Of a stretch of 64,000 bases of DNA, positions 3,616-35,776 are shown piece by piece. The notes beneath the pieces are model-generated. The model saw only the letters and a program-made list of their open reading frames with translations, ran no database searches and was not told where the DNA came from. The DNA is from an uncultured bacterium (GTDB lineage Bacteria > Hydrothermota > Tepidihabitantia > Tepidihabitantales > Tepidihabitantaceae): positions 75,656-139,655 of the forward strand of contig CAYPNB010000001.1 of NCBI GenBank assembly GCA_964412225.1. Reading direction: 5' to 3'. Numbering within the stretch: the stretch's first letter is position 1; each line of letters opens with the position of its first letter. The position numbers and the translations under genes were made by a program.

Positions 3616-3702
3616 TAATATAGAAAGGGAAAATTTTCTGTCAAAAGCGACAAAGAAAAACTGGACAGATAACATCAGGGGGGGTATAATTTTGACTTCA
3701 CA

Positions 3703-4137
3703 ATGGCGGATACGCAGGAGTTTCAGCCCAAGATTGTGGCGTTTCTCTGTAACTGGTGTTCTTATGCTGGTGCCGATCTGGCGGGAATTTCAAGAATGCA
3801 GTACCCACCGACAATTCGGGTGATCCGGGTACCCTGTTCGGGCCGGGTGGACCCGTTTTTTATTTTACAGGCGCTCCAGATGGGAGCGGATGGGGTGCTG
3901 GTGTCCGGGTGTCATCCCGGAGACTGTCATTATCTCACTGGTAATTTTGTTGCCCGGCGGCGGTTCGCGGTGCTCAATGACCTGCTGGAGTTCTGTGGGA
4001 TTGAGCCCGGGCGGGTGACCTTTGCCTGGGTGTCGGCAGCAGAGGGCGAGCGGTTTGCCCAGCTGGTGCGGGAGGTGACCGAAAAGGTGCGTCAACTGGG
4101 ACCCAGCCGGAGGCTGGTGAAAAGGGAGCCGGTTTGA
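3703..4137 (+). CDS. mvhD: MvhD/FlxD-like methyl-viologen-reducing hydrogenase delta-subunit homolog
   Basis: 144 aa with conserved cysteines (FLCNWCSYAGADLAG, VPCSGRVD, GCHPGDCHY) diagnostic of the MvhD 2Fe-2S protein. It is the first gene of the hdr/flx cluster. Confidence 0.85.
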   Translation: MADTQEFQPKIVAFLCNWCSYAGADLAGISRMQYPPTIRVIRVPCSGRVDPFFILQALQMGADGVLVSGCHPGDCHYLTGNFVARRRFAVLNDLLEFCGIEPGRVTFAWVSAAEGERFAQLVREVTEKVRQLGPSRRLVKREPV

Positions 4138-4967
4138 GCCAAATTGAGAGGTTGCGGGGGCGGGCAAAAGAGTTGCTTGCCAGCAAAACGGTTGCCTTTG
4201 TGCTTGGTTTTCAGGCCGGGTGCCGTTCTGAAGAAGCCGAGGTGGCTTTTATTACCGAGCCCGCAGAGGCCGGGCGATTGATAGTTGACGGCACCTGTTC
4301 GCTGAACATCGCCAACTTTCTTCTCCGGGTGAAGGGGGCGGGTCGGGGTGCGGTGGTGGCGCGGGGCTGTGAGTCCCGGTCAATTGTGGTTCTCCTCCAG
4401 GAGCGGCAGGTGGTGCGGGAAAACCTCTACATTCTCGGGGTGGGATGTGAAGGGGTGGTGGTAAACGGGGAGAAGTCGGTTGCCTGCGTCAGTTGTCGGT
4501 GTCCTAATCCGGTGATTTACGACGAGATGATTGGTGAGCCGGTGCCGGTTTCGCCGGAGCCGGTGCCGGATGATTTTGAGCGGTTGAGCCCGGATGAGCG
4601 GTGGCAGGTTTTGCAGGAGGATATCCAGAGGTGCATTCGCTGTTACGCCTGCCGGCAGGTATGTCCGAACTGCTACTGTCCGGTCTGTTTTGTTGACAAC
4701 ACCATGCCCCAGGTGGTGGGCAGGACCCATAACCTTTCGGACAATATGGTTTTTCACATCGGTCGGGCGCTGCATATGGCGGGCAGGTGTGTTGAGTGTG
4801 GGGCGTGCCACCGTGCCTGTCCGATGGGGATTGACTTAATGCGTTTCAATCGGCGGGTGGCAAAGACGGTGAAGGAGCGGTTTGGTGCGGTAGCGGGGAT
4901 GGACCTGAAGGAGGCGCCGGCGCTGACCGTTTTTAAACCGGATGACCCCCAGGAGTTTATCTACTGA
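4134..4967 (+). CDS. FlxC-like iron-sulfur protein (FrhB/FdhB-family N-terminus plus 2x[4Fe-4S] ferredoxin)
   Basis: The TTG start overlaps the mvhD stop (TTGA). CIRCYACRQVCPNCYCP and CVECGACHRACPMG ferredoxin motifs. Paralogous to 15018-16148. Confidence 0.7.
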   Translation: MSQIERLRGRAKELLASKTVAFVLGFQAGCRSEEAEVAFITEPAEAGRLIVDGTCSLNIANFLLRVKGAGRGAVVARGCESRSIVVLLQERQVVRENLYILGVGCEGVVVNGEKSVACVSCRCPNPVIYDEMIGEPVPVSPEPVPDDFERLSPDERWQVLQEDIQRCIRCYACRQVCPNCYCPVCFVDNTMPQVVGRTHNLSDNMVFHIGRALHMAGRCVECGACHRACPMGIDLMRFNRRVAKTVKERFGAVAGMDLKEAPALTVFKPDDPQEFIY

Positions 4968-4968
4968 T

Positions 4969-5985
4969 ATGGGTAAACCAAGGCAGGTTAAGAAAGAGGA
5001 ACTCCGGCAGCGGCTTAACTCCTTAGCCGGTGAGGGGAAGTTGTTTGCGCCGGTGCGGGATAAAACGGGTTCGGTCTGGCGCCGGGTGGCAAGTGCTGAA
5101 GAGATCTGTTTGGAGGAGATAAACGTTCGGGAGCCGGCAAAGGTTTTTGTTTTTCCCCGCACTGAGGTGATGATGCGGTTTGATGAAAAAGGGTTACCGG
5201 AGGTGCCGGCAGATGTGCCAGAGCAGGTGGTTTTTGGTTTGCGCCCCTGTGACGGGAGCGCCGGTGCCTTTCTGGAACAGTTTTTTACCGGCGGGGACCG
5301 GGTTGACCCGTATGTGAAACGGCGCCGGGAGCGGACAGTTCTGGTTGGCGTTGCCTGTAATCGCGCCGAGCCTTCCTGTTTCTGTATGGCGGTGGGCGGT
5401 AGTCCCCAGGGAACACGGGGGCTGGATTTACTGCTTACCGATCTGGGCGAATTGTGGGTGGCGGAGCCGGTGACCGCGGCGGGGGAAAAACTGGTGGCGG
5501 AGATGCCCGAAGCGGAGGCGGCGGTGCTGAAAAAGAAAGAGGAGATTCGCCATCAGGTTGAGGCGCAGATGGAGTTTAAGGAGTTGCCCAAAGGGTTGGC
5601 GGAAAAACTGGCGCGGTGTTTTGAGCATCGGGTGTGGGACATTTTGGCGGCGAAGTGTGTAAACTGTGGCGTCTGCACCTTTCTCTGTCCGACCTGTCAC
5701 TGCTTTGATGTTACCGATGAGACGGTACAGGGTAGGACCAGCCGGTGTCGGGTGTGGGACTCCTGTCAGTTTACCCTTTACTCCCAGCACGCCTCTGGGC
5801 ACAACCCGCGGTTTCAGCCGGGGTCCCGGTACCGGAACCGGGTGATGGACAAGTTTAAGTACACGGTAGAACAGGTGGGCGCGATTTCCTGTGTTGGCTG
5901 CGGGCGGTGTATCCGGTTCTGTCCGGCCGGAATTGACATCCGGCAGACGGTGCTGCGGGTGAGTCAGGCGATTGCGGAGGAGTAG
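4969..5985 (+). CDS. FlxB / AsrA / HydB-like 4Fe-4S subunit
   Basis: CFCMAVGG, CVNCGVCTFLCPTCHCFD and CVGCGRCIRFCPAG motifs match the anaerobic sulfite reductase subunit A / sulfhydrogenase beta family. The start was placed at ATG 4969 (MGKPRQ) just after the upstream stop; the longer ORF begins at 4942. Confidence 0.7.
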   Translation: MGKPRQVKKEELRQRLNSLAGEGKLFAPVRDKTGSVWRRVASAEEICLEEINVREPAKVFVFPRTEVMMRFDEKGLPEVPADVPEQVVFGLRPCDGSAGAFLEQFFTGGDRVDPYVKRRRERTVLVGVACNRAEPSCFCMAVGGSPQGTRGLDLLLTDLGELWVAEPVTAAGEKLVAEMPEAEAAVLKKKEEIRHQVEAQMEFKELPKGLAEKLARCFEHRVWDILAAKCVNCGVCTFLCPTCHCFDVTDETVQGRTSRCRVWDSCQFTLYSQHASGHNPRFQPGSRYRNRVMDKFKYTVEQVGAISCVGCGRCIRFCPAGIDIRQTVLRVSQAIAEE

Positions 5986-5988
5986 ACG

Positions 5989-6828
5989 GTGATGAACCCC
6001 TATCTGCCGATTCCGGTGCGGATTGAGCGGGTGACGGTTGAAAACGACGCCCAGGACCTGAAGACATTTGACCTGGCGTTTGTTGAGGAGGCGCTGCGGG
6101 CGAACTGGCGTTTTGTACCGGGGCAGTTTGGTTTTCTGTCAATCGCCGGGGTGGGTGAGGCGCCGTTTGGGATCGCCTCGGCACCCCATGAGCGGCTTTT
6201 GAAGTTTACGGTTAAACGGGTGGGTTCTTTTACCACCGCTCTTCACGAACTGACAGAAGGGGCGGTAATCGGTTTACGGGGGCCGTTTGGCAACTGGTAT
6301 CCGTTTGATTTGATGAAGGGCCGGGATGTGGTGATTGTTTCCGGCGGGTTTTCCTTCACCACTTTGCGGGCGACGATTGCCCATCTGCTTTTGCCGGAGA
6401 ATCGTGGTGATGTTGGGGAAATTACCGTTGTCTATGGCGCCCGTTCACCCGGAGAGCTGCTCTACAAAGAGGAGTTGAAAGTGTGGGAGGGCCGTTCGGA
6501 CATAAAGCTGGTTCTGTGTGTTGACCGGAAGAACGGTGCCGACTGGCCCCGAATTGAGGGGCTGGTACCCAATGTGCTTCAGGATGTGGCGCCGGCAGCG
6601 AACAACGCGGTGGCGTTGGTGTGCGGACCGCCGATAATGCTAAAGTTTACCCATCCGGTCCTGGAGAAACTGGGATTTCTCCCGGAGCGGGTGTTCCTTT
6701 CCCTTGAGAATCGGATGAAGTGTGGCATCGGCAAGTGTGGCCACTGTAACGTAGGACCGAAGTACGTGTGCAAGGACGGGCCGGTTTTCGCCTATGCCGA
6801 ATTGCGCCAGTTGCCCAGGGAGTATTGA
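5989..6828 (+). CDS. FlxA / AsrB / HydG-like FAD- and NAD(P)H-binding 2Fe-2S oxidoreductase
   Basis: FAD/NAD-binding ferredoxin-reductase fold (PGQFGFLSI, VVIVSGGFSFTTLRATIAHL) with a C-terminal CGIGKCGHCNVGPKYVCKDGPVF 2Fe-2S motif, as in the PyrK/AsrB/HydG family. Confidence 0.75.
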   Translation: MMNPYLPIPVRIERVTVENDAQDLKTFDLAFVEEALRANWRFVPGQFGFLSIAGVGEAPFGIASAPHERLLKFTVKRVGSFTTALHELTEGAVIGLRGPFGNWYPFDLMKGRDVVIVSGGFSFTTLRATIAHLLLPENRGDVGEITVVYGARSPGELLYKEELKVWEGRSDIKLVLCVDRKNGADWPRIEGLVPNVLQDVAPAANNAVALVCGPPIMLKFTHPVLEKLGFLPERVFLSLENRMKCGIGKCGHCNVGPKYVCKDGPVFAYAELRQLPREY

Positions 6829-6863
6829 AAAGTGAGTCCGATTTGTTATCATTTGTGTCTTTT

Positions 6864-7253
6864 ATGAGCGGTGCACCAGATAAACTTCTTGCCCAGATTG
6901 AACAGTTAAGCGGTCAGCGGGTTTCTGACTGCTATCAGTGCGGTTGCTGCACCGCCGGGTGTCCGATTGGCGAGTGGATGGACCCGCCACCGAGTAAGGC
7001 GATCCGGATTTTACAATTGGGGCGGGCAGAGGAACTGCTGGCGAGTGAAGGGATATGGCTCTGCGCCAGTTGTCTTGTCTGCGGTACCCGCTGTCCAAGG
7101 AATGTTGATTATGCCCGAATCGCCGAGGCGTGCCGGTTGATTGTTTTGCGCGGCAAGCGCAGTGTGGTTGACCCGGACAGTGTTACCGAATCCGACCTGG
7201 AGGATGTGCCGCAGCAGGCGTTTATTGCCAGTTTCCGGAAGTTTTCGGTATGA
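6864..7253 (+). CDS. hdrC: Heterodisulfide reductase subunit C
   Basis: CYQCGCCTAGCP and CASCLVCGTRCP two-cluster ferredoxin typical of HdrC. The ATG at 6864 follows the flxA-like stop. Confidence 0.8.
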   Translation: MSGAPDKLLAQIEQLSGQRVSDCYQCGCCTAGCPIGEWMDPPPSKAIRILQLGRAEELLASEGIWLCASCLVCGTRCPRNVDYARIAEACRLIVLRGKRSVVDPDSVTESDLEDVPQQAFIASFRKFSV

Positions 7254-8107
7254 GATACCCTTATTATCCCGGATGTACTCTTTATTCCAAGGCCCGGAAT
7301 CTTGACCGGTGTGGGCGCCGGGCGATGGCGACGCTCGGGGTGGAACTGGCAGAGATGTCTTCCTGGAACTGCTGCGGGGCGATTTACAACACCGGCAGCG
7401 ACGACCTGGCCGGCCAGGTCGGTCCAATCCGGAATCTGGCCAAGGCCAGTCAGGAGGGAGAAAAACTGGTTACGCTGTGCGCCGCCTGCCACAACGTGCT
7501 GAAACGGGCACAGGAGCGGTTTTTTGCCCAGGGGAATGAACAGGAGCGACAGCGGCTGATTGATTTTCTTGATGAACCTTTTACCCGGCCGGTGACGGTT
7601 GTTCACTACCTTGAGGTCCTGAAGGAGGATTTAGGCTGGGCGGCGATTAAGGAGCGGGTGCAGCAGCCTTTGGGTTTGAAGGTTGCCTCTTATTACGGTT
7701 GTTTGATGGTCCGGCCCCGGGAGGTTTTGAAGTTTGACGATCCGGATAACCCGCAGGTGATGGACGAACTGATGGGGGTTCTTGGTGCCGAGCCGGTGCG
7801 GTTTGATTTTAAGACCGAGTGTTGTGGTGGTTATCTGGTGGTGAACCGGCGGGCGGTGGCGGTTGAGTGCTCGCGGCGGATTTTAGACAATGCCCGTTCG
7901 TGGGGGGCGGAGGTAATTGTCACCACCTGTCCGTTGTGTCAGTACAACCTGGAAATTGCTCAGCGGGGGCAGGGCCCGGTTATGCCGGTATTTTATTTTA
8001 CCCAGTTATTGGGTCTGGCACTGGGTTTGGCACCGGTTGAACTGGGGTTTGAGGACAATAAACTTGACCCGGTGCCGTTTCTGAAGGAGAAAGGGTTAAT
8101 TAAATGA
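7250..8107 (+). CDS. hdrB: Heterodisulfide reductase subunit B (two CCG domains)
   Basis: ATGA overlap with hdrC. N-terminal YYPGC...NCCG and C-terminal YYGCLMV...CCGG...TTCPLCQYNL Cys-rich CCG domains. Confidence 0.85.
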   Translation: MRYPYYPGCTLYSKARNLDRCGRRAMATLGVELAEMSSWNCCGAIYNTGSDDLAGQVGPIRNLAKASQEGEKLVTLCAACHNVLKRAQERFFAQGNEQERQRLIDFLDEPFTRPVTVVHYLEVLKEDLGWAAIKERVQQPLGLKVASYYGCLMVRPREVLKFDDPDNPQVMDELMGVLGAEPVRFDFKTECCGGYLVVNRRAVAVECSRRILDNARSWGAEVIVTTCPLCQYNLEIAQRGQGPVMPVFYFTQLLGLALGLAPVELGFEDNKLDPVPFLKEKGLIK

Positions 8108-10098
8108 GCGCGGAGAATCCAGTTCTGGTTAACGAAGAGCGGCGGGCGGCGGGCGGTAAGCGGAAACTGGGTGTTTTTATCTGCCACTGCGGAATAAACA
8201 TTGCCGGTGTGGTTAAGGTTCCCGAACTGGTGGAAAGGGTAAAGAAGATTTCCGGGGTGGCGAGCGTTAAGGATTATGTTTACTGCTGTTCCGATCCCGG
8301 GCAGAAGATTATTCGCGATACAATTAAGTCGGAAGGGCTGGAGGGGGTGGTTGTAGCCTGCTGTTCCCCCACTCTCCACGAGGCGACATTCCGGCGGGCA
8401 GCGACTGAGGCGGGGCTGAACCCATATCTCTGTGAAATTGCCAATATTCGGGAGCAGTGCTCCTGGGTTACCGCGGACCGGGACGCGGCAACCGCCAAGG
8501 CAGAGGGCATTATTGCCACCATGCTTGCCAAGGTTGCCCGGGACCAGCCGCTGGAACGGTTGCGGGTTCCGATTGTGAAGCGGTGTCTGGTGGTGGGGGC
8601 GGGGATTGCCGGTATTCAGGCGGCTCTGGATGTGGCAAATGCGGGTTATGAGGTGGTGCTGGTGGAGAAGGAGCCGTCAATTGGCGGGCACATGGCACAA
8701 CTGTCCGAGACTTTCCCGACGCTTGATTGTTCGCAGTGTATTCTGACACCCAGGACGGTTGAGGCGGGTCGCCATCCGAGAATTAAACTTTTGACCTACT
8801 CAGAGGTGGCGGAGGTCAGCGGTTTTGTTGGCAATTTCCGGGTGAAGATAAAACAGAAACCCCGGTACGTTGACATTGACGCCTGCACCGGATGCGGGAT
8901 CTGTCTGGAGAAATGCCCGGTGCGGGTAGCGTCGGGTTTTGACCGGCAGCTGACCAGGCGCCGGGCGATCTACCGGTTGTTTCCCCAGGCGGTGCCGAAT
9001 AAGGTGGTGATTGATGCCGAGAGCTGCCGCCAGTTACAGGGTAAGAAGTGCGGGGTCTGTGCCAAGGTCTGTCCGGCGAATGCGATCCGTTATGATGACC
9101 AGGAGCGTTTTATTGAGGAGGAGGTGGGTGCAATTGTGCTCGCCACCGGTTATGAACTGTTTGACATCAGTCGGGTTGGCGCTTACGGTGCCGGCGTTGT
9201 TCCCGACGTGATTGATGGGCTGGCGTTTGAGCGAATTCTCTCGGCATCAGGTCCTTTTGCCGGTGAGGTGCGGCGGCCCTCGGACGGCAAGGTGCCGAAG
9301 CGGGTGGTGTTTGTTCAGTGCGCGGGTTCTCGGGACAGCAATCAAGGGGTGCCGTACTGTTCCAAGATTTGCTGTATGTATACCGCCAAACACGCGTTGC
9401 TGTACAAGCACCGGGTGCACGACGGCGAGGCGATTGTTTGCTATATTGATGTGCGGACACCGGGGAAGGGGTTTGAGGAGTTTTATCGGCGGGCAACTGA
9501 CGAAGGGGTGCAGTATCTTCGCGGTAAGGTGTCTAAAATTTTCCGCCGGGGGGATCGGGTGGTGGTTTGGGCAGCGGACACCCTGGCGGGCAAAAAACTG
9601 GAGATTGAAGCGGATATGGTGGTGCTGGCGAGTGCGGTTATCCCCAATCCCAGGGGGATAGAACTGGCACGACGGTTAAAAGTCGGCGTTGACGCCAACG
9701 GGTTCCAGTCCGAGGCACATCCGAAACTGCGACCGGTGGAGACGCTTACCGCCGGGTTTTTCCTCGCGGGATGCGGTCAGGGACCAAAGGACATTCCTGA
9801 AACGGTGGCGCAGGCTTCCGGGGCGGCGGCGAAGGTGCTGGCTTTGTTTGGAAATGAAGAGATGGAGCATGAACCGGTAATCGCTCAGGTTGATGAGGAT
9901 GTTTGTGTCGGTTGTGGCAACTGCGAGCGGACCTGTGCCTATGAGGCGGTAAAGGTTGACCCCCGGCGGGGTAAGGCGATAGTGCAAAAGGCGATGTGTG
10001 AAGGGTGCGGGGCGTGTGCGGTTGCCTGTCCTTCCGGGGCGATGAATCTGACCAACTTTACCAAAAAGGCACTTGTTGAAATGGTGGATGTGGATTGA
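8104..10098 (+). CDS. hdrA: Heterodisulfide reductase subunit A (FAD, multiple FeS)
   Basis: 664 aa with an ATGA overlap to hdrB. It has the VFICHCGINIAG thioredoxin-like/MvhD-binding module, a GAGIAGIQAALD FAD motif, an inserted CTGCGICLEKCP ferredoxin, a CAGSRD...YCSKICC stretch, and a C-terminal CVGCGNCERTCAY...CEGCGACAVACP 2x[4Fe-4S]. Confidence 0.9.
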   Translation: MSAENPVLVNEERRAAGGKRKLGVFICHCGINIAGVVKVPELVERVKKISGVASVKDYVYCCSDPGQKIIRDTIKSEGLEGVVVACCSPTLHEATFRRAATEAGLNPYLCEIANIREQCSWVTADRDAATAKAEGIIATMLAKVARDQPLERLRVPIVKRCLVVGAGIAGIQAALDVANAGYEVVLVEKEPSIGGHMAQLSETFPTLDCSQCILTPRTVEAGRHPRIKLLTYSEVAEVSGFVGNFRVKIKQKPRYVDIDACTGCGICLEKCPVRVASGFDRQLTRRRAIYRLFPQAVPNKVVIDAESCRQLQGKKCGVCAKVCPANAIRYDDQERFIEEEVGAIVLATGYELFDISRVGAYGAGVVPDVIDGLAFERILSASGPFAGEVRRPSDGKVPKRVVFVQCAGSRDSNQGVPYCSKICCMYTAKHALLYKHRVHDGEAIVCYIDVRTPGKGFEEFYRRATDEGVQYLRGKVSKIFRRGDRVVVWAADTLAGKKLEIEADMVVLASAVIPNPRGIELARRLKVGVDANGFQSEAHPKLRPVETLTAGFFLAGCGQGPKDIPETVAQASGAAAKVLALFGNEEMEHEPVIAQVDEDVCVGCGNCERTCAYEAVKVDPRRGKAIVQKAMCEGCGACAVACPSGAMNLTNFTKKALVEMVDVD

Positions 10099-13000
10099 GT
10101 ATGGCGCCGAATCAGGGAAGCAACAACAATAACAAAGTTGGGGCGGTTTTAGTTGTCGGAGCGGGGATCGCCGGCATTCAGGCGTCACTGGAGATGGCAG
10201 AGGCGGGGTTTAAGGTCTACCTGGTGGACAGGTCGCCGGCAATTGGTGGGGTAATGGCGATGCTGGACAAAACATTTCCCACCAATGACTGTTCAATGTG
10301 CATCCTGGCGCCGAAACTGGTGGGCACGGGGCGGCATCCGAACATTGAAATTATAAACGGTGCTGAACTGACCGGACTGGAGGGAGAACCGGGTAATTTT
10401 ACAGTCCGCATCCGGCGTCAGCCGCGCTATGTATTGCTGGATAAATGCACCGGCTGTCTTGATTGCACCAAGGTATGCCCGGTGGCGGTGCCCGATACCT
10501 ATAATCAGGGGCTTTCGTCCCGCCGGGCGGTTTACAAACTGTTTGCTCAGGCGATTCCGAATGCGGTGGCGATTGACAAAAACGAACACCGGGCACCCTG
10601 CCGGCTTGCCTGTCCGGCGGGTGTTAACGCCCAGGGTTATGTGGCGCTGATCCGGGAGCGGAAGTTTAAGGAGGGGTATGAACTGGTCCGCCAGCGGTTG
10701 CCGTTTGTGGGTGTCTGCGGTCGGGTTTGTCATCATCCCTGCGAGCAACAGTGTAACCGTAAGGATGTGGATGAACCGGTGGCGATTCGGACCCTGAAGC
10801 GGTTTCTTGCCGACTGGGTTCAGGAAAACGGGCCGTTGCCATACCCGGCGCCAGCGCCGGAAAACGGGAGGCGGGTGGCGGTGATAGGAGCCGGTCCGGC
10901 CGGGTTAACCTGTGCCCTTGATTTGCGGCTTAAGGGGTACTCGGTGACGGTGTTTGAAGCCGGCGAGGCGCCCGGTGGGATGATGCGCTGGGGTATACCG
11001 GCTTACCGTCTGCCCCGGAAGGTACTGGATGAGGAAATTAAGGCGATTCTTGATACTGGTGTGGAGTTGAAGTTAAACAGCCCGGTTACCAGCACCGCCG
11101 ATTTGAAGCAATTACTGGCGGGTGGATATCAGGCGGTGTTTGTGGCGGTGGGCTGTTCCCGGAGCCGGCGGCTGGAGGTTCCAGGGGTGGAACTGGCCGG
11201 TGTTTTGCCCGGGATTGAATTTCTCCGGCGGGTGAACGGCGGCGAGCAGGGAATTTTAACCGGTCAGCGGGTGGTGGTGATCGGCGGTGGCAATGTGGCG
11301 GTGGATTGCGCCCTTTGTGCCCGGCGGTCTGGTGCGGTTGAGGTAACAATGGTCTGTCTGGAGCGCCGGGAGGAGATGCCGGCGCACGAGTGGGAGATTG
11401 CCGAGGCGCTGGCAGAAGGGGTTAAGATTATGCCCTCCTGGGGGCCGAAGGTGATTACCGGGGATAACGGTCGGGTTACCGGTCTGGAGACCGTTTTCTG
11501 CGTTCGGGTATTTGACGAAAGCGGCCGGTTTAATCCTCAGTTTGACCAGGGGAAAACCGGTTTTGTGCCGGCGGATGCGGTCATTATTGCCATCGGGCAG
11601 GAGGTGGCGGGCGATGGTTTTGACGGCGTTGAGCGGGGCCGGCTGGGGACATTTAAAGTTGACCCGGTAACCCTGGCGGTACCGGGGATGCCCGGGATTT
11701 TTGCCGGCGGTGATGGCGTGCGGGGTCCGGCATCGGTGATTGAGGCGGTGGCGGATGGGCATGAGGCGGCGCTATCAATTGACCGATTTCTCAGGGGTGA
11801 GAACCTGGCTACGGCAAGGCCAGAGCCGAAGCCGGAGCCGGCAAGGTTAGAAGAAAGCGCGCGCGCCCGGAGTGGTATCGGCAAAGAGGCCCGCCGGCCC
11901 GAGCCGGTTCTGGCGGTGGAAAAACGGCAGGATAATTTTGCTGAGATCAATTTGGGTTTTGACGAAGAAACCGCGGTCAGTGAAGCCCGCCGTTGTCTGG
12001 ACTGCGGGGTGTGTTCGGAGTGTTTTCAGTGTGTTGCGGCGTGCGAAGCCAGGGCGATTGACCACAGCGAGACCCCCCGGGAACTGAACCTGCAGGTGGG
12101 AGCGGTTGTGCTGGCAGGCGGTTTCCGGGAGTATAAGCCGATAGATTCCGAATGGGGCTATCGTGATTCGCCGAATGTGGTTACCAGTTTGGAGTTTGAA
12201 CGGATTTTGTCGGCGACCGGTCCTTATGAGGGTCATGTGCGCCGACCCGGGGATGGGAAACAGCCGAAAAAGATTGCCTGGGTGCAGTGTGTTGGTTCCC
12301 GGAGCCAGGAGCACTACTACTGCTCGTCGGTGTGCTGTATGTTTGCCACCAAAGAGGCGGTGATCGCCAAGGAGCATTGTGCCGGCGACCTGGAGTGCCA
12401 CGTTTACTATATGGACATGCGCTGTTTTGGCAAGGGGTTTGAGCGGTATTACGAACGGGCAAGGGATGAATACGGCGTGGTCTTCCGGCGGTGCCGGGTG
12501 GCCAAGATTGTACCGGAGAATGGGGGTTGCGAAAACCCGTCCGGTAACCTGGTGGTCAGTTACGAAAACGAGAACGGCGAACTCCAGGAAGAGGTTTATG
12601 ATATGGTGGTGCTTTCCAGCGCCCTGACCGCTGACCCGGATTACGCCCGGCTATGCGCTTCCATCAAGGTGGATGTTGACGAACAGGGTTTTGTCCGCAC
12701 CGACCAGTTTTATCCGGTGGCGACATCGCGGCCCGGGGTGTTTGCCTGCGGTGCCTTAGTGGAACCCAAGGACATTCCGGAAACAGTGACCGAGGCGACC
12801 GGTTGTGCGGGTGCAGTGGCGAGTCTACTTGCCGAAGCCCGTAACACGCTGGTGAAGAAAAAGGAGTACCCACCAGAACGGGACGTCAGTGCTGAGGAGC
12901 CCCGGGTTGGTGTCTTTGTCTGTAATTGCGGGATAAATATCGGCGGGGTTGTCACCGTCCCGTCAGTAGTGGAGTTCGCCCGGACCCTGCCCGGTGTGGT

Positions 13001-14576
13001 TTATGCCGAGGAGAACCTTTTCACCTGTTCTCAGGACACCCAGGAGAAAATCCGCCGGGTGATTGTGGAGCAGAAACTCAACCGGGTGGTGGTTGCCTCC
13101 TGTACCCCCCGGACCCATGAGCCGCTTTTCCAGGAGACAATGCGGGAGGCGGGGCTCAACCCCTATCTGTTCACGATGGCGAATATCCGGGACCAGTGTT
13201 CCTGGGTTCATATGCAGTTGCCGAATGAGGCGACCGAAAAGGCAAAGGAGCTGGTACGGATGGCGGTGGCAAATGCCTGTCGGTTAAAACCGCTTTCCTG
13301 TTCGTCCCAACCCATTGTTCAGAAGGCGCTGGTTATCGGCGGTGGGCTTGCTGGTATGACCACCGCACTTGCCATTGCCGACCAGGGTTTTGAGGTGTTC
13401 CTGGTGGAAAAGGCAGCGGAACTGGGCGGAAAGTTGCGTCGGGTCCGATACAATCAGCGGGGTGAACGGATTGATGAGTTTCTGTCCGCTTTGGAACGGC
13501 GGGTTCGTACCCATTCCAACATTAGGGTTTTCACGGGTAGTGAGGTGAGGGCGGTATCGGGTTATGTCGGGAACTATCTGAGCCGGGTGGAAAGGGTTGA
13601 TGGTAGTGATGTTCAGGATATCAAACACGGGGTTTTTGTGGTGGCGGTTGGGGCCGAGGAGTATCGCCCGAAAGATTTCTTCTACGGCGAAGACGAAAGG
13701 GTAATGACCCAGTTGGAACTGGAACAGATACTTACCACTCAGCCCGAACGGTTAGCCGGGGTGAAGAGTGTGGCAATGATTCAGTGCGTTGGTTCCCGGG
13801 ATGCCGAACATCCGTACTGTTCCAGAATCTGCTGTACCGAGGCGATAAAAAATGCCTTGCACCTGAAAAAAGAGAATCCGAAACGGCAGGTTTATGTTTT
13901 CTACCGGGACATTCGCACCTACGGGTTTAAAGAGGCGCTGTATCAGGAGGCAAGACAGGCGGGGGTGATATTTATCCGGTTTGACCCGGATGTGCCGGAG
14001 CGGGCTTTAAGCTGGGAGAGGCGTAATGGTAAACTCCACGTCGCCACATTTGACCCGGTGCTTGGCAGACGGGTAGGGGTGGATGCTGACCTTCTGGTGC
14101 TTTCCGCGGGTGTGGTGCCAACGCCAGCACACCGGGAACTGGCACAGCTGTTAAAGGTGCCATTAAATGAAGACGGTTTCTTCCTTGAGGCGCATATGAA
14201 ACTCCGGCCGGTTGATTTCAATACCGCCGGGGTGTTTATGGCGGGGCTTTGTCACAGCCCCCGGTTGATGGATGAAACGATTGCCCAGGCGTTAGCAGCG
14301 GCGGCTCGTGCCGGTGCGGTGATCAGTCAAACTGAGATTATGACCCAGGCGGTGGTGGCGCGAGTTAACCAGCGCTGGTGCGCGGGTTGCGGGGTATGTG
14401 AAAACGTCTGTCAGTATGAGGCGGTGCATCTAAACCCGGCGACCGGGAAAAGTGAGGTTACCGCGGTGCTCTGCCAGGGGTGCGGTGCCTGTGCCGCTGC
14501 CTGTCCCGCCAGTGCGATTGAACTGCAGGGGTTTGAGTCAAAACAGTTATTGGCAATGATAGAAGCGGCACTATGA
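10095..14576 (+). CDS. HdrL-like giant HdrA-family protein with an inserted GltD-like NAD(P)H oxidoreductase domain and a second HdrA-like FAD domain
   Basis: 1493 aa. An HdrA-type N-terminal FAD half (VVGAGIAGIQASL, CTGCLDCTKVCP) is followed by a GltD-like segment (CPAGVNAQGY...VAVIGAGPAGLTCALDL...VVVIGGGNVAVDCA). Then come the remainder of the HdrA fold (CVGSRSQEHYYCSSVCC), a CNCGINIGG module, a second FAD domain (LVIGGGLAGMTTALA) and a C-terminal 2x[4Fe-4S]. It overlaps the hdrA stop. Confidence 0.85.
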   Translation: MSMAPNQGSNNNNKVGAVLVVGAGIAGIQASLEMAEAGFKVYLVDRSPAIGGVMAMLDKTFPTNDCSMCILAPKLVGTGRHPNIEIINGAELTGLEGEPGNFTVRIRRQPRYVLLDKCTGCLDCTKVCPVAVPDTYNQGLSSRRAVYKLFAQAIPNAVAIDKNEHRAPCRLACPAGVNAQGYVALIRERKFKEGYELVRQRLPFVGVCGRVCHHPCEQQCNRKDVDEPVAIRTLKRFLADWVQENGPLPYPAPAPENGRRVAVIGAGPAGLTCALDLRLKGYSVTVFEAGEAPGGMMRWGIPAYRLPRKVLDEEIKAILDTGVELKLNSPVTSTADLKQLLAGGYQAVFVAVGCSRSRRLEVPGVELAGVLPGIEFLRRVNGGEQGILTGQRVVVIGGGNVAVDCALCARRSGAVEVTMVCLERREEMPAHEWEIAEALAEGVKIMPSWGPKVITGDNGRVTGLETVFCVRVFDESGRFNPQFDQGKTGFVPADAVIIAIGQEVAGDGFDGVERGRLGTFKVDPVTLAVPGMPGIFAGGDGVRGPASVIEAVADGHEAALSIDRFLRGENLATARPEPKPEPARLEESARARSGIGKEARRPEPVLAVEKRQDNFAEINLGFDEETAVSEARRCLDCGVCSECFQCVAACEARAIDHSETPRELNLQVGAVVLAGGFREYKPIDSEWGYRDSPNVVTSLEFERILSATGPYEGHVRRPGDGKQPKKIAWVQCVGSRSQEHYYCSSVCCMFATKEAVIAKEHCAGDLECHVYYMDMRCFGKGFERYYERARDEYGVVFRRCRVAKIVPENGGCENPSGNLVVSYENENGELQEEVYDMVVLSSALTADPDYARLCASIKVDVDEQGFVRTDQFYPVATSRPGVFACGALVEPKDIPETVTEATGCAGAVASLLAEARNTLVKKKEYPPERDVSAEEPRVGVFVCNCGINIGGVVTVPSVVEFARTLPGVVYAEENLFTCSQDTQEKIRRVIVEQKLNRVVVASCTPRTHEPLFQETMREAGLNPYLFTMANIRDQCSWVHMQLPNEATEKAKELVRMAVANACRLKPLSCSSQPIVQKALVIGGGLAGMTTALAIADQGFEVFLVEKAAELGGKLRRVRYNQRGERIDEFLSALERRVRTHSNIRVFTGSEVRAVSGYVGNYLSRVERVDGSDVQDIKHGVFVVAVGAEEYRPKDFFYGEDERVMTQLELEQILTTQPERLAGVKSVAMIQCVGSRDAEHPYCSRICCTEAIKNALHLKKENPKRQVYVFYRDIRTYGFKEALYQEARQAGVIFIRFDPDVPERALSWERRNGKLHVATFDPVLGRRVGVDADLLVLSAGVVPTPAHRELAQLLKVPLNEDGFFLEAHMKLRPVDFNTAGVFMAGLCHSPRLMDETIAQALAAAARAGAVISQTEIMTQAVVARVNQRWCAGCGVCENVCQYEAVHLNPATGKSEVTAVLCQGCGACAAACPASAIELQGFESKQLLAMIEAAL

Positions 14577-14596
14577 GTGGAAAGTGAGGTGTCATT

Positions 14597-15016
14597 ATGA
14601 ACTACGAGCCCCGGATAGTCGGATTTTTATGTAACTGGTGTACCTATGCCGGTGCGGATCTTGCCGGTACTTCCCGAATTCAGTATCCCCCGAATATGCG
14701 GCCAATCAGAGTTATGTGTTCGGGTGCGGTGGACTCGGTTTATATCCTGCGGGCATTGCTGGAGGGGGCGGACGGGGTGTTTATCGGTGGCTGTCATCCG
14801 GGTGATTGTCATTATGTCTCGGGGAATTACAAAACCCGGCGGCGGATGGTGCTGTTCAATGCGATCATGCGGTCGTTGGGACTTGATGACGGACGGGTGT
14901 TGCTGCGCTGGATTTCGGCGGCGGAAGGCAAAAAGTTTGCCGAGACGATAACCACAATGACCGAGGAGCTCCGCCAGAAAGGCCCGAGTCCGTTCCGCAG
15001 TCTCTGGGAGGTGTAG
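14597..15016 (+). CDS. mvhD: MvhD-like protein (second copy)
   Basis: FLCNWCTYAGADLAG, MCSGAVD and GCHPGDCHY motifs, paralogous to 3703-4137. A GAGGTG RBS lies 8 nt upstream. Confidence 0.85.
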   Translation: MNYEPRIVGFLCNWCTYAGADLAGTSRIQYPPNMRPIRVMCSGAVDSVYILRALLEGADGVFIGGCHPGDCHYVSGNYKTRRRMVLFNAIMRSLGLDDGRVLLRWISAAEGKKFAETITTMTEELRQKGPSPFRSLWEV

Positions 15017-15017
15017 G

Positions 15018-16148
15018 GTGGCAAAGATGGGAGTGTTCAAAGTTGACGACCACAATCCGGAACAGACGCTCCGGGATGTTTGCGCTCGCTGGCTCAAAGA
15101 AGAAAAACTTTCGGCGATTTTAGTTCCGGCGGTCTCCCCGCTCGGGGTTGTTGCTCCAGCGCTCGTCACCACACCGGAAGCGGTTAAACGGATCGCCCCT
15201 CTTTGTCCGGCGATGTCGGTAAACGGTGCCAATATTTTAATGGAAATTGCCCAGCATCCGGCGGCACCGGAAACCAGGGTCGGGCTGATGCTCCGACCGT
15301 GCGAACTCCGGGCGGTGGTGGAACTGGTGAAACTGAAACAGATAGCGCTGGACAATTTGATTTTAATCGGCATTGATTGTCCCGGGACTTATAAGGTGTC
15401 AGTATACAATCAGTTAAGCCAGAGTGATCCGGAGTTTAACAGCCGGTTTGTCAAAAGTCAGGGAGGGTATTTAAATGACGAGCGTTTACGGAGCGCCTGC
15501 CAGATGTGTGAGTTTCCCACACCGTTAGTGGCGGACCTGGCGATCGGCTTTTTGGGAATGGATCCAGCAAAGGAGATTTTCTTTGAAGCGGCAACCGCTA
15601 AAGGTGAGACACTTTTAGACGGGTTTGCCTTAGATTCCGTTGGTGAGGTACCGGCGGCGCGCCGGGAGTACCTGGCGGCGTTTCGCCGGGGACGGGAGGA
15701 GAAGGCGGCACAGCTCATCGCCCAGTTTGAACAGGTGGCGCTGGGACCGGAAAATTTATTGCGCTATTTTGCCAACTGCCTCAACTGCCACAACTGTATG
15801 CATGTCTGCCCGGTTTGCTACTGCCGGGAGTGTTTTTTTGAGTCGGAGGCGCTCAAGCGGGAGATGGATGAGACGGTGCGGCTGGCAAGACGCAAGGGTA
15901 TTTCCCGGATGCCCGCGGGGACGATGCTGTTTCATCTGACGAGGATGAATCACATGATGACGTCCTGTGTTCAGTGCGGGATCTGCGAGGAGTCCTGCCC
16001 GGTTCAGATCGGTTTGAGTGTACTCTTCAAGAAGGTATCTCGTGCTGCCCAGGCAGAATTTGCCTATCTATCCGGTCGGTCGCTGGAGGAGCCGCTGCCG
16101 CTGACCACCTTCCGTGAGGATGAGTTCCGGACTGTTGGTGAAGGGTAA
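15018..16148 (+). CDS. FlxC-like / FrhB-FdhB-family iron-sulfur protein (second copy)
   Basis: CLNCHNCMHVCPVCYCREC and CVQCGICEESCP ferredoxin motifs after an FrhB-like N-terminal domain. Paralog of 4134-4967. Confidence 0.7.
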   Translation: MAKMGVFKVDDHNPEQTLRDVCARWLKEEKLSAILVPAVSPLGVVAPALVTTPEAVKRIAPLCPAMSVNGANILMEIAQHPAAPETRVGLMLRPCELRAVVELVKLKQIALDNLILIGIDCPGTYKVSVYNQLSQSDPEFNSRFVKSQGGYLNDERLRSACQMCEFPTPLVADLAIGFLGMDPAKEIFFEAATAKGETLLDGFALDSVGEVPAARREYLAAFRRGREEKAAQLIAQFEQVALGPENLLRYFANCLNCHNCMHVCPVCYCRECFFESEALKREMDETVRLARRKGISRMPAGTMLFHLTRMNHMMTSCVQCGICEESCPVQIGLSVLFKKVSRAAQAEFAYLSGRSLEEPLPLTTFREDEFRTVGEG

Positions 16149-16150
16149 AA

Positions 16151-16828
16151 ATGGAAGAGATTTTACTTAACGAACTGGACGGCGATTTCAAGTATCGGAT
16201 CGCGGAGCGGATGGGTGACGCCAGTTTTCTCAACTGTTTTGCCTGCGGTTCCTGCACCGCTGCCTGCCCGGTGCGCCGTTTAGAGGAGAAATACAATCCC
16301 CGGCGGTTGGTGCGAATGGCAATTCTGGGGATGAAGGAGGAAGTTTACCGGTCGGAGTTTGTCTGGCTCTGTTCTTATCATTCTACCTGTCTTTACCGAT
16401 GCCCGCAGGGCGTTAACATCGGTGAGGTGTGTGCAACGGTGGTGAAGTTGAGTGCCGGTTGTCCGGCGCCCCAAAAGGAGAATGAGGCAAAGGTGGACCC
16501 GGCTTTTCGGCAGGAGGTTTTGAAACGGGTTCCCGGGGTTTCGGCCTGTTTTGTCTGTGGTAGTTGTACCGCCGTCTGTCCGGAGGCGCTGGTGGACACC
16601 GAGAAGGACCCCCGACGGTTTATCCGAAAGGTGAATTTAGGGTTGCGGGAGGCGGCGTTTGCCGATCAGTTCAAGGACGTCTGCGCTACCCATTTTAAGT
16701 GCGAGAGCCGGTGTCCCCAAGGGGTCAAAATCAGCCGGATAATGCAGGTGCTGAAAGAACTGGCGATGGAAGACGGCTATACCTATCCCGAGTCGCTCAA
16801 AATGCTGGAAAGGCGGGCGGATGAGTGA
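16151..16828 (+). CDS. Tandem-duplicated HdrC-like ferredoxin
   Basis: Two consecutive HdrC-like modules (CFACGSCTAACP...CLYRCPQGV and CFVCGSCTAVCP...CESRCPQGV) in 225 aa. No HdrB-like gene follows. Confidence 0.75.
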   Translation: MEEILLNELDGDFKYRIAERMGDASFLNCFACGSCTAACPVRRLEEKYNPRRLVRMAILGMKEEVYRSEFVWLCSYHSTCLYRCPQGVNIGEVCATVVKLSAGCPAPQKENEAKVDPAFRQEVLKRVPGVSACFVCGSCTAVCPEALVDTEKDPRRFIRKVNLGLREAAFADQFKDVCATHFKCESRCPQGVKISRIMQVLKELAMEDGYTYPESLKMLERRADE

Positions 16829-19800
16829 GGTGGGTTCGGTGAATGCGGCGCTGGTGGTTGGTGGTGGTGTTGGTGGGGTACAGGTGGCGCTGGACCTGGC
16901 GGATGCGGGGTTGAAGGTGTATCTGGTGGAGCGGGCGCCGGCGATCGGCGGGTATATGGCGATGCTGGACAAAACATTTCCCACCAATGACTGTTCAATG
17001 TGCATCCTATCACCGAAACTGGTTTCCTGTGCCCGGCATCCGAATGTTGAACTACTGACTTTGAGCGAGGTTCTTGAGGTCACTGGTGAGCCGGGTAACT
17101 TTCAGGTCCGGGTCCGGCGTTATGCCCGCTCGGTGGACATTGACCGTTGCACTGGTTGCGGCAGCTGTTTGGAAAAGTGTCCGGTTAAACTGCCCAACGA
17201 GTTTGAGGGCGGGCTTTCCCAGCGCCGGGCGATTTACCGGCTCTATGCACAAGCAGTACCCAATGCGCCGACAATTGACCGTAAGGTATGTCTCAAGTTC
17301 ACCAAAAACCGGTGCGGTAACTGCGAAAAGGTCTGTAAGGCAGGGGCGATTAATTACGCCGAAGAGGACCAGGAGATGGTACTCAATGTGGCGGCGGTTG
17401 TGCTGGCTACCGGCAGTGAGATCGTCAGCCCCCGGGTGCGGCAGGAGTTTGGTTATGGCCGGTTTCCCAATGTGGTAACCAGTCTGGAGTTTGAACGGAT
17501 TCTCTCGGCATCTGGTCCATTCGGGGGGCACATCCAACGCCCTGGTGACCGCAAGGAGCCAAAGAAAATTGCCTGGTTACAGTGTTTTGGTTCCCGGGAC
17601 GAGACGGTAAACAGGGGTTACTGTTCTTCGGTTTGCTGTATGTATGCGGTCAAGGAGGCGGTGATTGCCAAGGAGCATAGTCCAGAAGTTCAGCCGACCA
17701 TTTTTTATATGGACCTCCGTGCCTTTGGCAAGGACTTTGACCGTTATATTGAGCGGGCGGAAAAGCAGTACGGGGTGCGGCTGGTACCGGCAAGGGTGGC
17801 CGAGATTCGCGAAATACCCGAGACAAAAGATTTGGTTGTTCGCTATGCCACAGAAAAGGGACAGAGGACAGAGCGGTTTGATATGGTGGTATTGTCCGGC
17901 GGTTTTATTCCTCCAGAAGCGGTTCAACTTTTAGACCAGCGTCTGGGGGTCCAACTTAATCAATTTTCCTATCCACTTGTTGACGTCTTCGCCCCGGTCA
18001 ATACCACAAGGGCGGGTGTTTTTCTTGCCGGGAGCGATCAGGGACCAAAGGATATACCGGAGACGGTAACCCAGGCATCGGCGGCGGCGGCACAGGTTCT
18101 TTCCTGTTCCGGTGTTCCTGGTGCTGTGGCTAAAAAGGGTGATGGGTTCCGCAACGTTATCGGTGAGCCGCCGCGCATCGGTGTTTTTGTCTGTCACTGC
18201 GGAATAAACATCGGTGGGGTTGTCCGGGTGCCAGAGGTGGTGGAGTTTGCCCGTCAGTTACCTGGGGTGGTTTATGCTGAGGAAAACCTTTACTCCTGTT
18301 CCGCGGACAGCCTGGAGAAATTGAAATCCCGGATTGTGGAACAGAAACTTAACCGGGTGGTGGTTGCCTCCTGTTCACCCCGGACGCATGAACCGCTTTT
18401 CCAGGAGACGGTTGCGCAGGCGGGGCTGAACCCCCATCTCTTTGCGATGACCAACATCCGGGACCAGTGTTCCTGGGTGCACATGCAGCTGCCGGATGAG
18501 GCAACTGAAAAGGCGAAGGATCTGGTGGGGATGGCGGTCGCGCGGGTCCGGCGGCAGGAACCGCTGGCGCCAGTTAAACTGCCGGTGACCAAGGCGGGTC
18601 TGGTGATCGGCGGCGGGATTAGCGGGATGAGCGCGGCATTGGCTTTAGCCGATGCGGGGTTTGAGGTGTTCCTGGTGGAACGGGAAAATGAATTGGGCGG
18701 CATGGCAAGGAAAATCTGGCGGACAGTTGAGGGCGAGGATGTGCCGAAACGACTCGCCGGGTTGATTGAACGGGTAAGCACCCATCCCCGAGTTCGGGTG
18801 TTCACCGGGGCACGCATCGCCAGAATTGAAGGGTTTGTGGGTTCATTTACCACCACGGTGCGTCATAACACCGACCGCGGTGAGGAGGAAACAGAACTCC
18901 GGCACGGGGTGGTGGTTCTTGCCACCGGCGCCCGTTATCGTCAGCCCACTGAGTACCATTACGGTGCCAGTCCCCGGGTGAAGACCCAACAGGAGCTGGA
19001 GGAGATTATCGCCCGTCAGCCAGAGGGTTTAGACGACGCCCGGCTGGTGGTGATGATTCAGTGTGTTGGTTCAAGGGAGGAGGAGCGTCCGTATTGTTCA
19101 AGAATTTGCTGTGTTGAGGCGTTGAAAAACGCCATCGCCATCAAGGAGAGAAACCCACAGACTGAGGTGTTTATTCTCTACCGTGATATTCGCGCCTACG
19201 GGTTGAAGGAAAAATTTTATCGCCGGGCGCGAGAGATGGGGGTTAATTTCATCCGCTACACGCCGGACCGCAAGCCCGCAGTGAGTGCGACAAAAGAGGG
19301 GGTGCAGGTCCGGGTTTATGAGCCGGTTATCGGCGAGGAACTGGAACTGGTTCCCGACCTTCTGGTTCTTTCCAGCGGGGTGGTGGCGAACCCGGATGCC
19401 GCCGAACTGGCACAGATGCTCAAAGTGCCATTGCATCAGGACGGCTTTTTCCTTGAGGCGCACGCCAAACTCCGGCCGGTTGACTTTGCCACCGAAGGGG
19501 TGTTTCTATGCGGGCTCTGCCACTATCCCAAATTCATTGATGAGGCTATCGCCTCGGCGCAGGCGGCGGCGGGACGGGCGGTAACGGTCCTCGCCCGGGA
19601 GTTTATTGAGGGTGAACCCTATCAGGCGGTGGTTAACCCGCAACGTTGCTCTGCCTGCCGGATGTGTGAAACCCTCTGTGCCTACCGGGCGATTGAGGTA
19701 AAACTGATTGATGAACGTCAGGGCAGGTTTGCGGCGGTAGTTAACGCGGCGTTGTGCAAAGGGTGCGGTGCCTGTGCGGCGAACTGTCGGTCCCAGGCAA

Positions 19801-19910: not shown

Positions 19911-19928
19911 CGGTCGGTCAGTAGCACC

Positions 19929-35768: not shown

Positions 35769-35776
35769 GAGGAAGA

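Follow-up and report, generated by a model that had tools for sequence, protein, structure and literature searches.

The question raised by this locus is how a HdrA-type protein might be wired when a NAD(P)H oxidoreductase-like module has been inserted into it. The window, meaning the whole stretch of 64,000 nucleotides analysed (contig CAYPNB010000001.1, positions 75,656–139,655), comes from an uncultured bacterium of the Hydrothermota, and the gene concerned is hdrL. A first-pass annotation of the sequence had described its product as an HdrL-like protein in which HdrA is interrupted by a GltD-like insertion and followed by another HdrA module. Profile searches, together with alignments to the HdrA structure 5ODC and to StnC/NfnA, bear this composition out, and all of the motifs quoted at that stage are present in the translation. 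We conclude that the window encodes an intact WOR-3 member of a known, biochemically uncharacterised family, the architecture of which has already been published; that the family had been called biochemically uncharacterised agrees with the available portions of published HdrL accounts. With regard to function, we consider it an even call whether HdrL is the NAD(P)H-linked flavin/iron–sulfur (Fe-S) core of a cytoplasmic, bifurcating HdrBC–MvhD complex. Of the four families of electron-bifurcating flavoenzymes known so far, HdrA-based complexes form one, and an understanding of how NAD(P)H is wired into the core of HdrA would shed light on the energy conservation of many uncultured anaerobes.

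hdrL is a single uninterrupted open reading frame (ORF) on the forward strand, 10095–14576, with the 1493 codons given by the first-pass annotation when these are counted from a TTG at 10095. This TTG overlaps the TGA stop codon (10096–98) of the upstream hdrA, and an ATG at 10101, with the purine-rich GGTGGATGTGGA ahead of it, is the likely start, yielding a protein of 1491 amino acids (aa); residue numbers count from this ATG unless TTG numbering is named. In a public protein collection the identical protein is found both under P0001, at 1491 aa, and, at 1493 aa, among the members of a cluster. That so long an ORF could be an assembly chimera, or the result of a frameshift fusing separate genes, has virtually no chance of being correct: nothing was found in its favour, and it is refuted by 72 collinear full-length homologues from independent assemblies and many phyla, all with identical junctions. 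It is further contradicted by the identical public protein, by a GC content that is continuous over the junctions, and by a confident AlphaFold2 model of aa 1–930 (mean pLDDT 88.4, pTM 0.84). Its only weak parts are the Cys64/67 loop and the linker at aa 570–600, and it superposes on the HdrA core 8rwn_A across the insertion (TMt 0.92).

In a Pfam/NCBIfam profile search, HdrA/HdrA2 models matched HdrL in four stretches, with NCBIfam scores below their cutoffs (936.8 vs 1100). HdrL could be aligned to the Methanothermococcus thermolithotrophicus HdrA (5ODC; E = 1.4e-183) in four collinear pieces, with HdrL aa 22–161, 632–839, 932–1105 and 1309–1489 corresponding to HdrA 152–291, 287–492, 2–175 and 466–648, respectively. 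The 5ODC sequence was rebuilt from the search output, and the alignment made with it comprised the two HdrL modules, the operon's canonical HdrA and a tandem HdrA of 1029 aa. Module 1 (aa 1–161 plus 637–930) carries a flavin adenine dinucleotide (FAD) domain with the Cys194/Cys197 motif (TNDC64SMC67), all eight Cys of the inserted ferredoxin domain, a cluster of the C386/399/403/404 type and the Lys409 equivalent. Module 2 (aa 931–1491) comprises the N-terminal domain, its own FAD domain with a four-Cys cluster and Lys, and the C-terminal 2×[4Fe-4S] ferredoxin domain that had been recognized from the outset; in the alignment to 5ODC it lacks both the Cys194/197 motif and the inserted ferredoxin domain. 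Each element of the HdrA protomer (N-domain, Cys194/197, inserted ferredoxin and C-terminal ferredoxin) is thus present once in HdrL, split complementarily between the modules. The Lys409 equivalent and the adjacent four-Cys cluster occur in both (K751 with C730/741/745/746; K1250 with C1229/1240/1244/1245).

Judged from these alignments, the two modules are predicted to be complementary halves of a single-chain pseudo-heterodimer, and what had been taken for a second full HdrA module would therefore be the other half of the pseudo-dimer. Complementary losses in tandem and fused HdrAs are read as an intramolecular heterodimer in the accessible part of Chadwick et al. (PMC9012536), and the loss pattern of HdrL fits the heterodimer logic described for fused HdrAs. 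Because the ligands are conserved, HdrL is expected to hold three FAD and nine [4Fe-4S] clusters.

The boundary check against Pfam and NCBIfam upheld the composition of the insertion. Its size needs correction: the insertion spans ~475 aa (162–636) rather than the ~390 first given, with a GltD core of ~400 aa and a remainder made up of a linker and a relocated segment. We placed it at about aa 162–638 because the cassette-free tandem hdrA of the operon aligns on both sides. It does lie within HdrA as had been proposed; the domain that it breaks, however, is not simply the FAD domain but the inserted ferredoxin domain. The cassette sits between the two Cys motifs of the only inserted ferredoxin domain in HdrL, and the second-half motif of that domain starts two residues past cassette Cys635. 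Fer4_20, Pyr_redox_2 and Pyr_redox (Pfam) all match within the insert, and NF009410 (PRK12771, GltD-like) scores 564.9 bits against a curated cutoff of 516, over aa 161–670 in TTG numbering and model positions 42–544 of 566.

Ranked by score, the top solved relative of the cassette is Caldicellulosiruptor NfnA (9bov_A; 373 bits; Foldseek 44 % identity and root mean square deviation of 2.8 Å over 485 columns), followed by Thermococcus sibiricus NfnA (9n5u_A), Sporomusa StnC (8oh5_C) and NfnB/NfnL (255 and 246 bits), with GltD (~210 bits) and DPD (124 bits) lower still. The StnC/NfnA alignment stays collinear to the end of a trailing segment, RQDNFAEINLGFDEETAVSEARRC632LDC635, which in the comparison with NfnB pairs with N-terminal residues 7–43, ahead of PCxxxCP. 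Because the NfnB N-terminus thus aligns behind the Rossmann body, we read the Fe-S domain of the cassette as circularly permuted relative to NfnB, GltD and DPD. Pfam Fer4_20 provides an independent check, with its positions 29–112 matching aa 164–244, before the Rossmann body, and its positions 1–36 matching aa 609–648, after it.

The FAD-proximal cluster has a Glu ligand in NfnB and Lys170 in both StnC and Csac NfnA, where this Lys ligates the first cluster after the non-bifurcating FAD. In HdrL, K233 aligns with K170 of StnC and of Csac NfnA and is kept in 72 of 73 HdrL sequences (the window protein plus 72 further full-length sequences from independent assemblies), and the Csac NfnA ligands C108/C147/C151/K170 as a set map to C171/C210/C214/K233. 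With the proximal ligands assigned, the distal cluster is left with C167, C218, C632 and C635, which are invariant or nearly so in the 73-sequence alignment, as is every predicted cluster ligand, even though the aligned sequences share only 45–70 % identity. His163, at the position of StnC C100, was considered as a ligand and dropped, with a gap in 69 of the 73 homologues. Taken together, the score ranking, topology and Lys ligand argue that the cassette is of the StnC/NfnA(Bfu)/PRK12771 type. The earlier description of a complete GltD-like module does not hold in this respect, as a canonical complete GltD is ruled out by the permuted Fe-S domain and by TIGR scores below cutoff (202–249 bits for TIGR01317/TIGR01318 against cutoffs of 448–483, and TIGR01316 also far below its cutoff), and the proximal ligand is Lys233; no GltB-like gene is present in the hdrL operon. 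An NfnB-type bifurcating module is similarly rejected, by Lys in place of Glu, by an N-terminal CxxC that has moved ~465 aa downstream and by best matches to StnC and NfnA. Nor does the operon contain an NfnA-like gene, its FlxA-like protein scoring 65.8 against a PRK06222 cutoff of 220.

The permuted cassette was also observed as a stand-alone protein of ~540–600 aa (P0123, P0143, P0171 and P0240), and embedded at many positions in hosts of 450–1530 aa. Some of the stand-alone forms have the halves of a 2×[4Fe-4S] ferredoxin on either side; in P0171 (543 aa), ferredoxin motif 1 comes first and is followed by the cassette, RCMSC and ferredoxin motif 2. In its behaviour, the permuted GltD cassette is a mobile module for NAD(P)H input.

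With regard to coenzyme, the NADPH-dependent StnC, NfnA and NfnB have Y-R-R after β2 of the second Rossmann fold, where HdrL of the window has C419-L420-E421. Loss of both Arg together with an acidic residue at the end of β2 is the classical signature of NAD(H) preference and, because CLE replaces the NADPH-type YRR, we predict with moderate confidence that this HdrL uses NADH. YRR is found in 50 of the 73 sequences and (C/A)LE in 23, including the window protein; CLE is near-invariant in the WOR-3-like clade and frequent in stand-alone cassettes, and the YRR/CLE split is a predicted marker of NADPH versus NADH subtypes. A rule for NAD+ from a 2025 survey, contrasting GxGxxG with GxGxxA, was set aside as non-discriminating, the window protein having GGGNVA and the NADPH enzymes GxGNTA.

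HdrL-type proteins had been thought at first pass to be known only from a few anaerobes. In a homologue scan with one genome per GTDB species, from which the best 80 of 600 matching stretches were taken, at least 80 species representatives in more than 12 phyla had full-length collinear homologues (residues ~10–1491, 44–70 % identity), and the HdrL family is therefore widespread in anaerobes rather than rare. Hosts among the matches listed are WOR-3, Desulfobacterota (Syntrophaceae and Syntrophorhabdaceae), Chloroflexota, Bacillota (including the cultured Desulfotruncus arcticus DSM 17038), Acidobacteriota, Planctomycetota, Latescibacteria, TA06, Calditrichales, Spirochaetes, Synergistaceae and Asgard archaea. 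Some 20 distinct 50 %-identity clusters of HdrL length occur among the top 150 cassette matches, and the closest proteins (66–78 % identity) are labelled candidate division WOR-3. Of the two Lys409 equivalents, K751 is kept in 68 and K1250 in 62 of the 73 aligned sequences. Separately, two deltaproteobacterial homologues (L055, ~5238–5240, and L058, ~3239–3241) have an in-frame TGA at the C943 position (VFVCH*GINIGG), which probably encodes selenocysteine; at a further locus, L068, the adjacent mvhD likewise has an in-frame TGA.

hdrL lies within a 13-gene same-strand operon (3703–20354, forward strand) behind a promoter-like site at 3662–3690 (11/12 matches). The gene order is that of Table 1, with seven genes from mvhD to hdrA ahead of hdrL and five from a further mvhD to archease behind it. 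The tandem HdrA is 51–60 % identical to HdrL (HdrL 13–161 = 7–155; HdrL 639–1491 = 163–1012), has the same complementary domain losses and, from its sequence, looks like a cassette-free paralogue. Neighbourhood counts, taken from the best 80 of 600 matching stretches, cover evaluable cases only (70 downstream, 65 upstream): mvhD is directly downstream of hdrL in 56 of 70, whilst hdrB or a fused hdrCB is directly upstream in 27 of 65 and a small hdrC-like gene in 18 of 65. FlxCBA-like genes often come after mvhD at hdrL loci, and four WOR-3 relatives (L001, L012, L074 and L080) have the gene order of the window. The Hdr supercluster of the window as a whole contains three HdrA-type genes (with five HdrA-type FAD domains) and two mvhD, but only one hdrB. 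Additionally, loci L009, L014, L015, L019, L063, L071, L073 and L077–L079, which belong to Chloroflexota, Bacillota, Spirochaetes and Synergistaceae, have no hdrB near hdrL and show the order small hdrC-like, hdrL, mvhD, flxC/B/A-like, suggesting a disulfide-independent variant of the complex.

Table 1. Coordinates of the hdrL operon genes and of the elements within HdrL (window positions; residues numbered from ATG 10101)
Feature	Position	Strand	Residues and remarks
mvhD/flxD-like	3703–4137	+	First operon gene
FeS protein	4134–4967	+	Second operon gene
HydB/AsrA/FlxB-like	4942–5985	+	
HydG/AsrB/FlxA-like NAD(P)-binding protein	5989–6828	+	Scores HydG/AsrB-like, not NfnA-like
hdrC	6768–7253	+	
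hdrB	7250–8107	+	Two complete CCG motifs
Canonical complete hdrA	8104–10098	+	Between hdrB and hdrL
hdrL ORF	10101–14576	+	1491 aa; alternative start TTG 10095
Module 1 thioredoxin-reductase-like FAD domain, N-terminal part	10137–10427	+	aa 13–109; GAGIAG, TNDC64SMC67 = HdrA Cys194/Cys197
Inserted ferredoxin domain, first half	10428–10583	+	aa 110–161; C116/C119/C122/C126
NAD(P)H/FAD/2×[4Fe-4S] cassette	10584–12008	+	aa 162–636
Cassette, Fer4_20 part 2			aa 164–244; C167, C171, C210, C214, C218, K233
Cassette, Rossmann motifs			FAD GAGPAG at aa 263; NAD(P) GGGNVA at aa 395, then C419-L420-E421
Cassette end			Linker aa 568–608; relocated Fer4_20 part 1, aa 609–636 (R-C632-LD-C635)
Inserted ferredoxin domain, second half	12009–12080	+	aa 637–660; C638/C641/C644/C648
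Module 1 FAD C-terminal part and inter-module linker	12081–12890	+	aa 661–930; C730/C741/C745/C746, K751 = HdrA K409
Module 2 HdrA N-terminal cluster domain	12894–13295	+	aa 932–1065; C941-N-C943, C976, C1001, C1033
Module 2 FAD domain	13296–14345	+	aa 1066–1415; GGGLAG, C1229/C1240/C1244/C1245, K1250
C-terminal 2×[4Fe-4S] ferredoxin domain	14346–14573	+	aa 1416–1491; 8 conserved Cys
mvhD (FlpD family, 2e-52)	14597–15016	+	Directly 3′ of hdrL
frhB-like	15018–16148	+	
Double hdrC-like	16151–16828	+	
Tandem hdrA ('type II')	16821–19910	+	1029 aa; collinear with hdrL minus cassette
Archease	19929–20354	+	Last operon gene; odd companion

Domain identities, ligand conservation, topology and gene neighbourhood are direct observations on HdrL, and from them a route for the electrons can be proposed, its direction and the identity of the bifurcating FAD being predictions. 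In solved Hdr complexes, as described in the portions of those reports available, three arms surround the bifurcating FAD; one leads from the four-Cys cluster to HdrC/HdrB, and another from the N-domain cluster (with a partner Cys/Sec197) through the inserted ferredoxin to ferredoxin. Each arm is represented exactly once in HdrL, and it is the N-domain/inserted-ferredoxin arm that has received the cassette. We propose that NADH would reduce the cassette FAD, from which single electrons would pass via the proximal cluster (C171, C210, C214 and K233) to the distal cluster (C167, C218, C632 and C635) and enter the two inserted-ferredoxin clusters. Only two residues separate C635 from C638, and for this reason the distal cluster of the cassette would have to neighbour one of the inserted-ferredoxin clusters; the cassettes of StnC and NfnA make the same hand-over to the sequence-wise next host cluster. 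Electrons would then reach the module 2 N-domain cluster, which may lie near, or be completed by, Cys67 of module 1, followed by an HdrA-type FAD. Bifurcation there would send one branch via the Cys-x-CC cluster to HdrC, HdrB and a putative disulfide, and the other through the ferredoxin domain at the C-terminus and on via MvhD to an acceptor of low potential, for which ferredoxin or the FrhB-like/tandem-HdrA partners encoded next door are candidates. NAD(P)H is favoured as the mid-potential donor by analogy with StnC and Csac NfnA, in both of which the module hands NADPH electrons linearly to the bifurcating core. The initial suggestion that NAD(P)H oxidation, the bifurcating flavin and ferredoxin-reducing clusters share one chain stands as far as the elements themselves are concerned; ferredoxin reduction at those clusters is doubtful, because the cassette is spliced into them.

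A number of points weigh against HdrL being an NAD(P)H-fed bifurcating core of this kind. The proposed route runs two arms opposite to the canonical Mvh–Hdr system, in which, according to the available parts of the structural reports, the N-domain cluster and inserted ferredoxin form the low-potential exit, and MvhD together with the ferredoxin at the C-terminus the entry. The route gives the second FAD no role. Around a quarter of the loci are without a nearby HdrB, having HdrC-like and Flx-like genes only, and disulfide reduction may not be universal to the family. Even in the window, HdrBC may serve the canonical HdrA rather than HdrL, because the complete hdrA stands between hdrB and hdrL. 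The GGGNVA motif (GxGxxA) is as in NADPH-dependent relatives, leaving CLE as the single basis of the NADH call. Furthermore, the available text of PMC2702500, PMC5947623, PMC9012536, PMC12054007 and PMC12142623 contains no purified HdrL-family enzyme.

In the main rival explanation the canonical polarity is retained: electrons would enter via MvhD and bifurcate at the HdrA flavin, and the cassette would reduce NAD(P)+ instead of ferredoxin, making the complex an NAD(P)+-reducing Hdr and, in effect, a disulfide-driven transhydrogenase. In the solved Mvh/Vhu–Hdr complexes, again from the parts available, the low-potential exit is precisely the place that the cassette occupies in HdrL, and the accessible portion of a 2025 survey (PMC12054007) made the case that the ferredoxin site is blocked by the GltD domain; in many loci MvhD is immediately followed by FlxCBA-like NAD(P)H modules, which would offer a second pyridine-nucleotide site, and the existence of YRR and CLE subclasses is consistent with coenzymes that differ between these sites. 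We nonetheless hold this polarity to be somewhat unlikely, given that NAD(P)+ reduction from donors at ≤ −320 mV needs no bifurcation, that the same cassette is an electron input module in both solved relatives and that WOR-3 has no obvious physiological need for such an enzyme. It is also conceivable, albeit unlikely, that HdrL represents a distinct Hdr class, with pyridine nucleotide in place of ferredoxin on the arm that serves as the low-potential exit in methanogen Hdr, or with two coupled HdrA-flavin bifurcations. In the former case, the complex would be either an NAD(P)+-reducing Hdr or a transhydrogenase from NADH to NADP+ driven by a disulfide. YRR and CLE would then mark NADPH and NADH subtypes.

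There would be no bifurcation at all if HdrL were a simple NAD(P)H:disulfide (or NAD(P)H:ferredoxin-like acceptor) oxidoreductase, in which the HdrA flavins and clusters act as a wire only. Transfer from NAD(P)H to a disulfide is exergonic, by its Lys ligand the cassette FAD belongs to the non-bifurcating type, and HdrB is absent at some loci; however, both HdrA flavin sites retain the Lys409 equivalent and adjacent clusters, and three separate electron arms plus an MvhD partner are conserved, which is excess machinery for a linear wire and makes this explanation quite improbable. At the other extreme, one polypeptide could contain two bifurcation sites, an NfnB-like cassette FAD in addition to the HdrA flavin, an idea raised for ANME-1 HdrA–NfnB fusions in the accessible part of PMC9012536. 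HdrL does conserve the Arg that in NfnB makes contact with flavin N5 (GIPAYR301LP), but StnC keeps this Arg as well and its cassette flavin has been shown to be non-bifurcating. As the proximal ligand is Lys where NfnB has Glu, the non-bifurcating modules of StnC and NfnA match the cassette best in both sequence and fold, and an NfnA/[2Fe-2S] partner is lacking (the FlxA-like gene scoring HydG/AsrB-like), we view a second site in the cassette as very improbable.

Elsewhere in the window, three large secreted proteins with type IX secretion system (T9SS) C-terminal sorting domains (Por_Secre_tail) are encoded at 41796–45464 (+), 48275–51037 (−) and 23973–25661 (+), two with Kelch repeats and one with BNR repeats; proteins of the T9SS type fit an FCB-group/WOR-3 host, and the assignment to WOR-3 is based on them and on the closest HdrL homologues. 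At 22098–23048 (−) TackOD1 (thaumarchaeal output domain 1) is joined to a restriction endonuclease domain of the Mrr type. At 37088–38716 (+) lies the gene for a FAD_binding_2 flavoprotein of 542 aa, fumarate reductase/aspartate oxidase-like and with an N-terminal extension of ~90 aa, as the last gene of a five-gene same-strand cluster (34241–38716).

The Flx–Hdr system offers one point of comparison for the NAD(P)H-fed bifurcating complex that we favour. Desulfovibrio FlxABCD–HdrABC is reportedly NADH-dependent and was proposed to be bifurcating (Ramos et al. in 2015). The two systems would share NADH as a proposed mid-potential donor to an HdrABC-type core, an MvhD-like connector and a flx-like gene set, which the window operon also contains; they differ in that separate Flx subunits deliver electrons via the MvhD-like protein, whereas the dehydrogenase of HdrL is built into the HdrA inserted ferredoxin. 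All cofactor-binding elements of HdrA from MvhAGD–HdrABC (5ODC, 8RVU and 7BKB) are found in HdrL, with a symmetric homodimer in the former and two fused complementary modules plus a cassette-bearing inserted ferredoxin in the latter. StnC (8OH5) and the Bfu-type NfnA (9BOV and 9N5U) resemble the cassette in collinear order, in the trailing helix with R-C-L-x-C and in the Lys proximal ligand, and their module is likewise inserted in a host Fe-S protein, to whose clusters its electrons pass; in StnC the host is a NuoG-like subunit. HdrL differs from them in having HdrA rather than a NuoG/FdhF-like subunit as host and CLE rather than YRR, and its bifurcating centre would be an HdrA FAD rather than the flavin mononucleotide site of Bfu. 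NfnB/NfnL of NfnAB (4YLF and 5JCA) and GltD (6S6S and 2VDC) share the two-Rossmann fold, two [4Fe-4S] clusters and the N5-Arg; in HdrL, by contrast, the N-terminal helix and CxxC are at the C-terminal end of the module, Lys replaces Glu and there is no NfnA/GltB partner.

HdrL was described in 2009 as an 'Hdr/glutamate synthase fusion', always with mvhD after it (PMC2702500), and the window gene shows the same traits, with an HdrA FAD domain and a GltD-like NAD(P)H domain in one chain and mvhD directly downstream. In Strittmatter (2009) and Pereira (2011), too, HdrL denotes a large HdrA/GltD fusion. HdrL1–3 of Desulfobacterium autotrophicum HRM2 and Sfum_0824 of Syntrophobacter fumaroxidans, compared here by description only, are the same large HdrA/glutamate-synthase-type fusion, soluble, with mvhD next and hdrABC and an FeS protein adjacent, as in the window; full-length homologues in Syntrophaceae, Syntrophorhabdaceae and Desulfotruncus arcticus served as proxies for them. 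Unlike those, the window HdrL has a WOR-3-like host and no selenocysteine, and its operon has a complete flx-like set together with canonical and tandem hdrA. HdrABC/HdrL proteins were abundant in S. fumaroxidans on sulfate (PMC5947623, 2018), an HdrL-like protein has been invoked in Desulfurivibrio (PMC12142623), and mvhADG–hdrABC is the only such system mentioned in a 2025 survey of WOR-3. According to the accessible part of a 2022 study, an NfnB-like insertion of ~500 aa breaks up the inserted ferredoxin domain of ANME-1 HdrA9–11 (PMC9012536), and 'type III HdrA' was presented in 2025, in the sections available, with AlphaFold models and the idea of NADH in place of ferredoxin (PMC12054007). 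As far as these portions go, NAD(P)H is the proposed redox partner of ANME-1 HdrA9/10/11 and of type III HdrA (including class A9-TRX-C), one type III class has an extra C-terminal thioredoxin-reductase domain, and the type III papers deal with archaea only and few sequences (9 type III), whereas the window protein is bacterial and its family large and multi-phylum. Neither the permuted Fe-S topology nor the Lys ligand nor the YRR/CLE split is mentioned in the parts of the type III and ANME-1 accounts available. Relative to those published portions, four points seem to be new: that the cassette is permuted and of the StnC/NfnA type, that it has a Lys ligand, that YRR and CLE forms exist side by side, and that the family is so widely distributed. 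The window thus adds no new type of system to those already known, but supplies testable details in the permuted Lys-ligated cassette, the single complete path and the NADH/NADPH marker, and Desulfotruncus arcticus and S. fumaroxidans are cultured hosts in which experiments could be performed.

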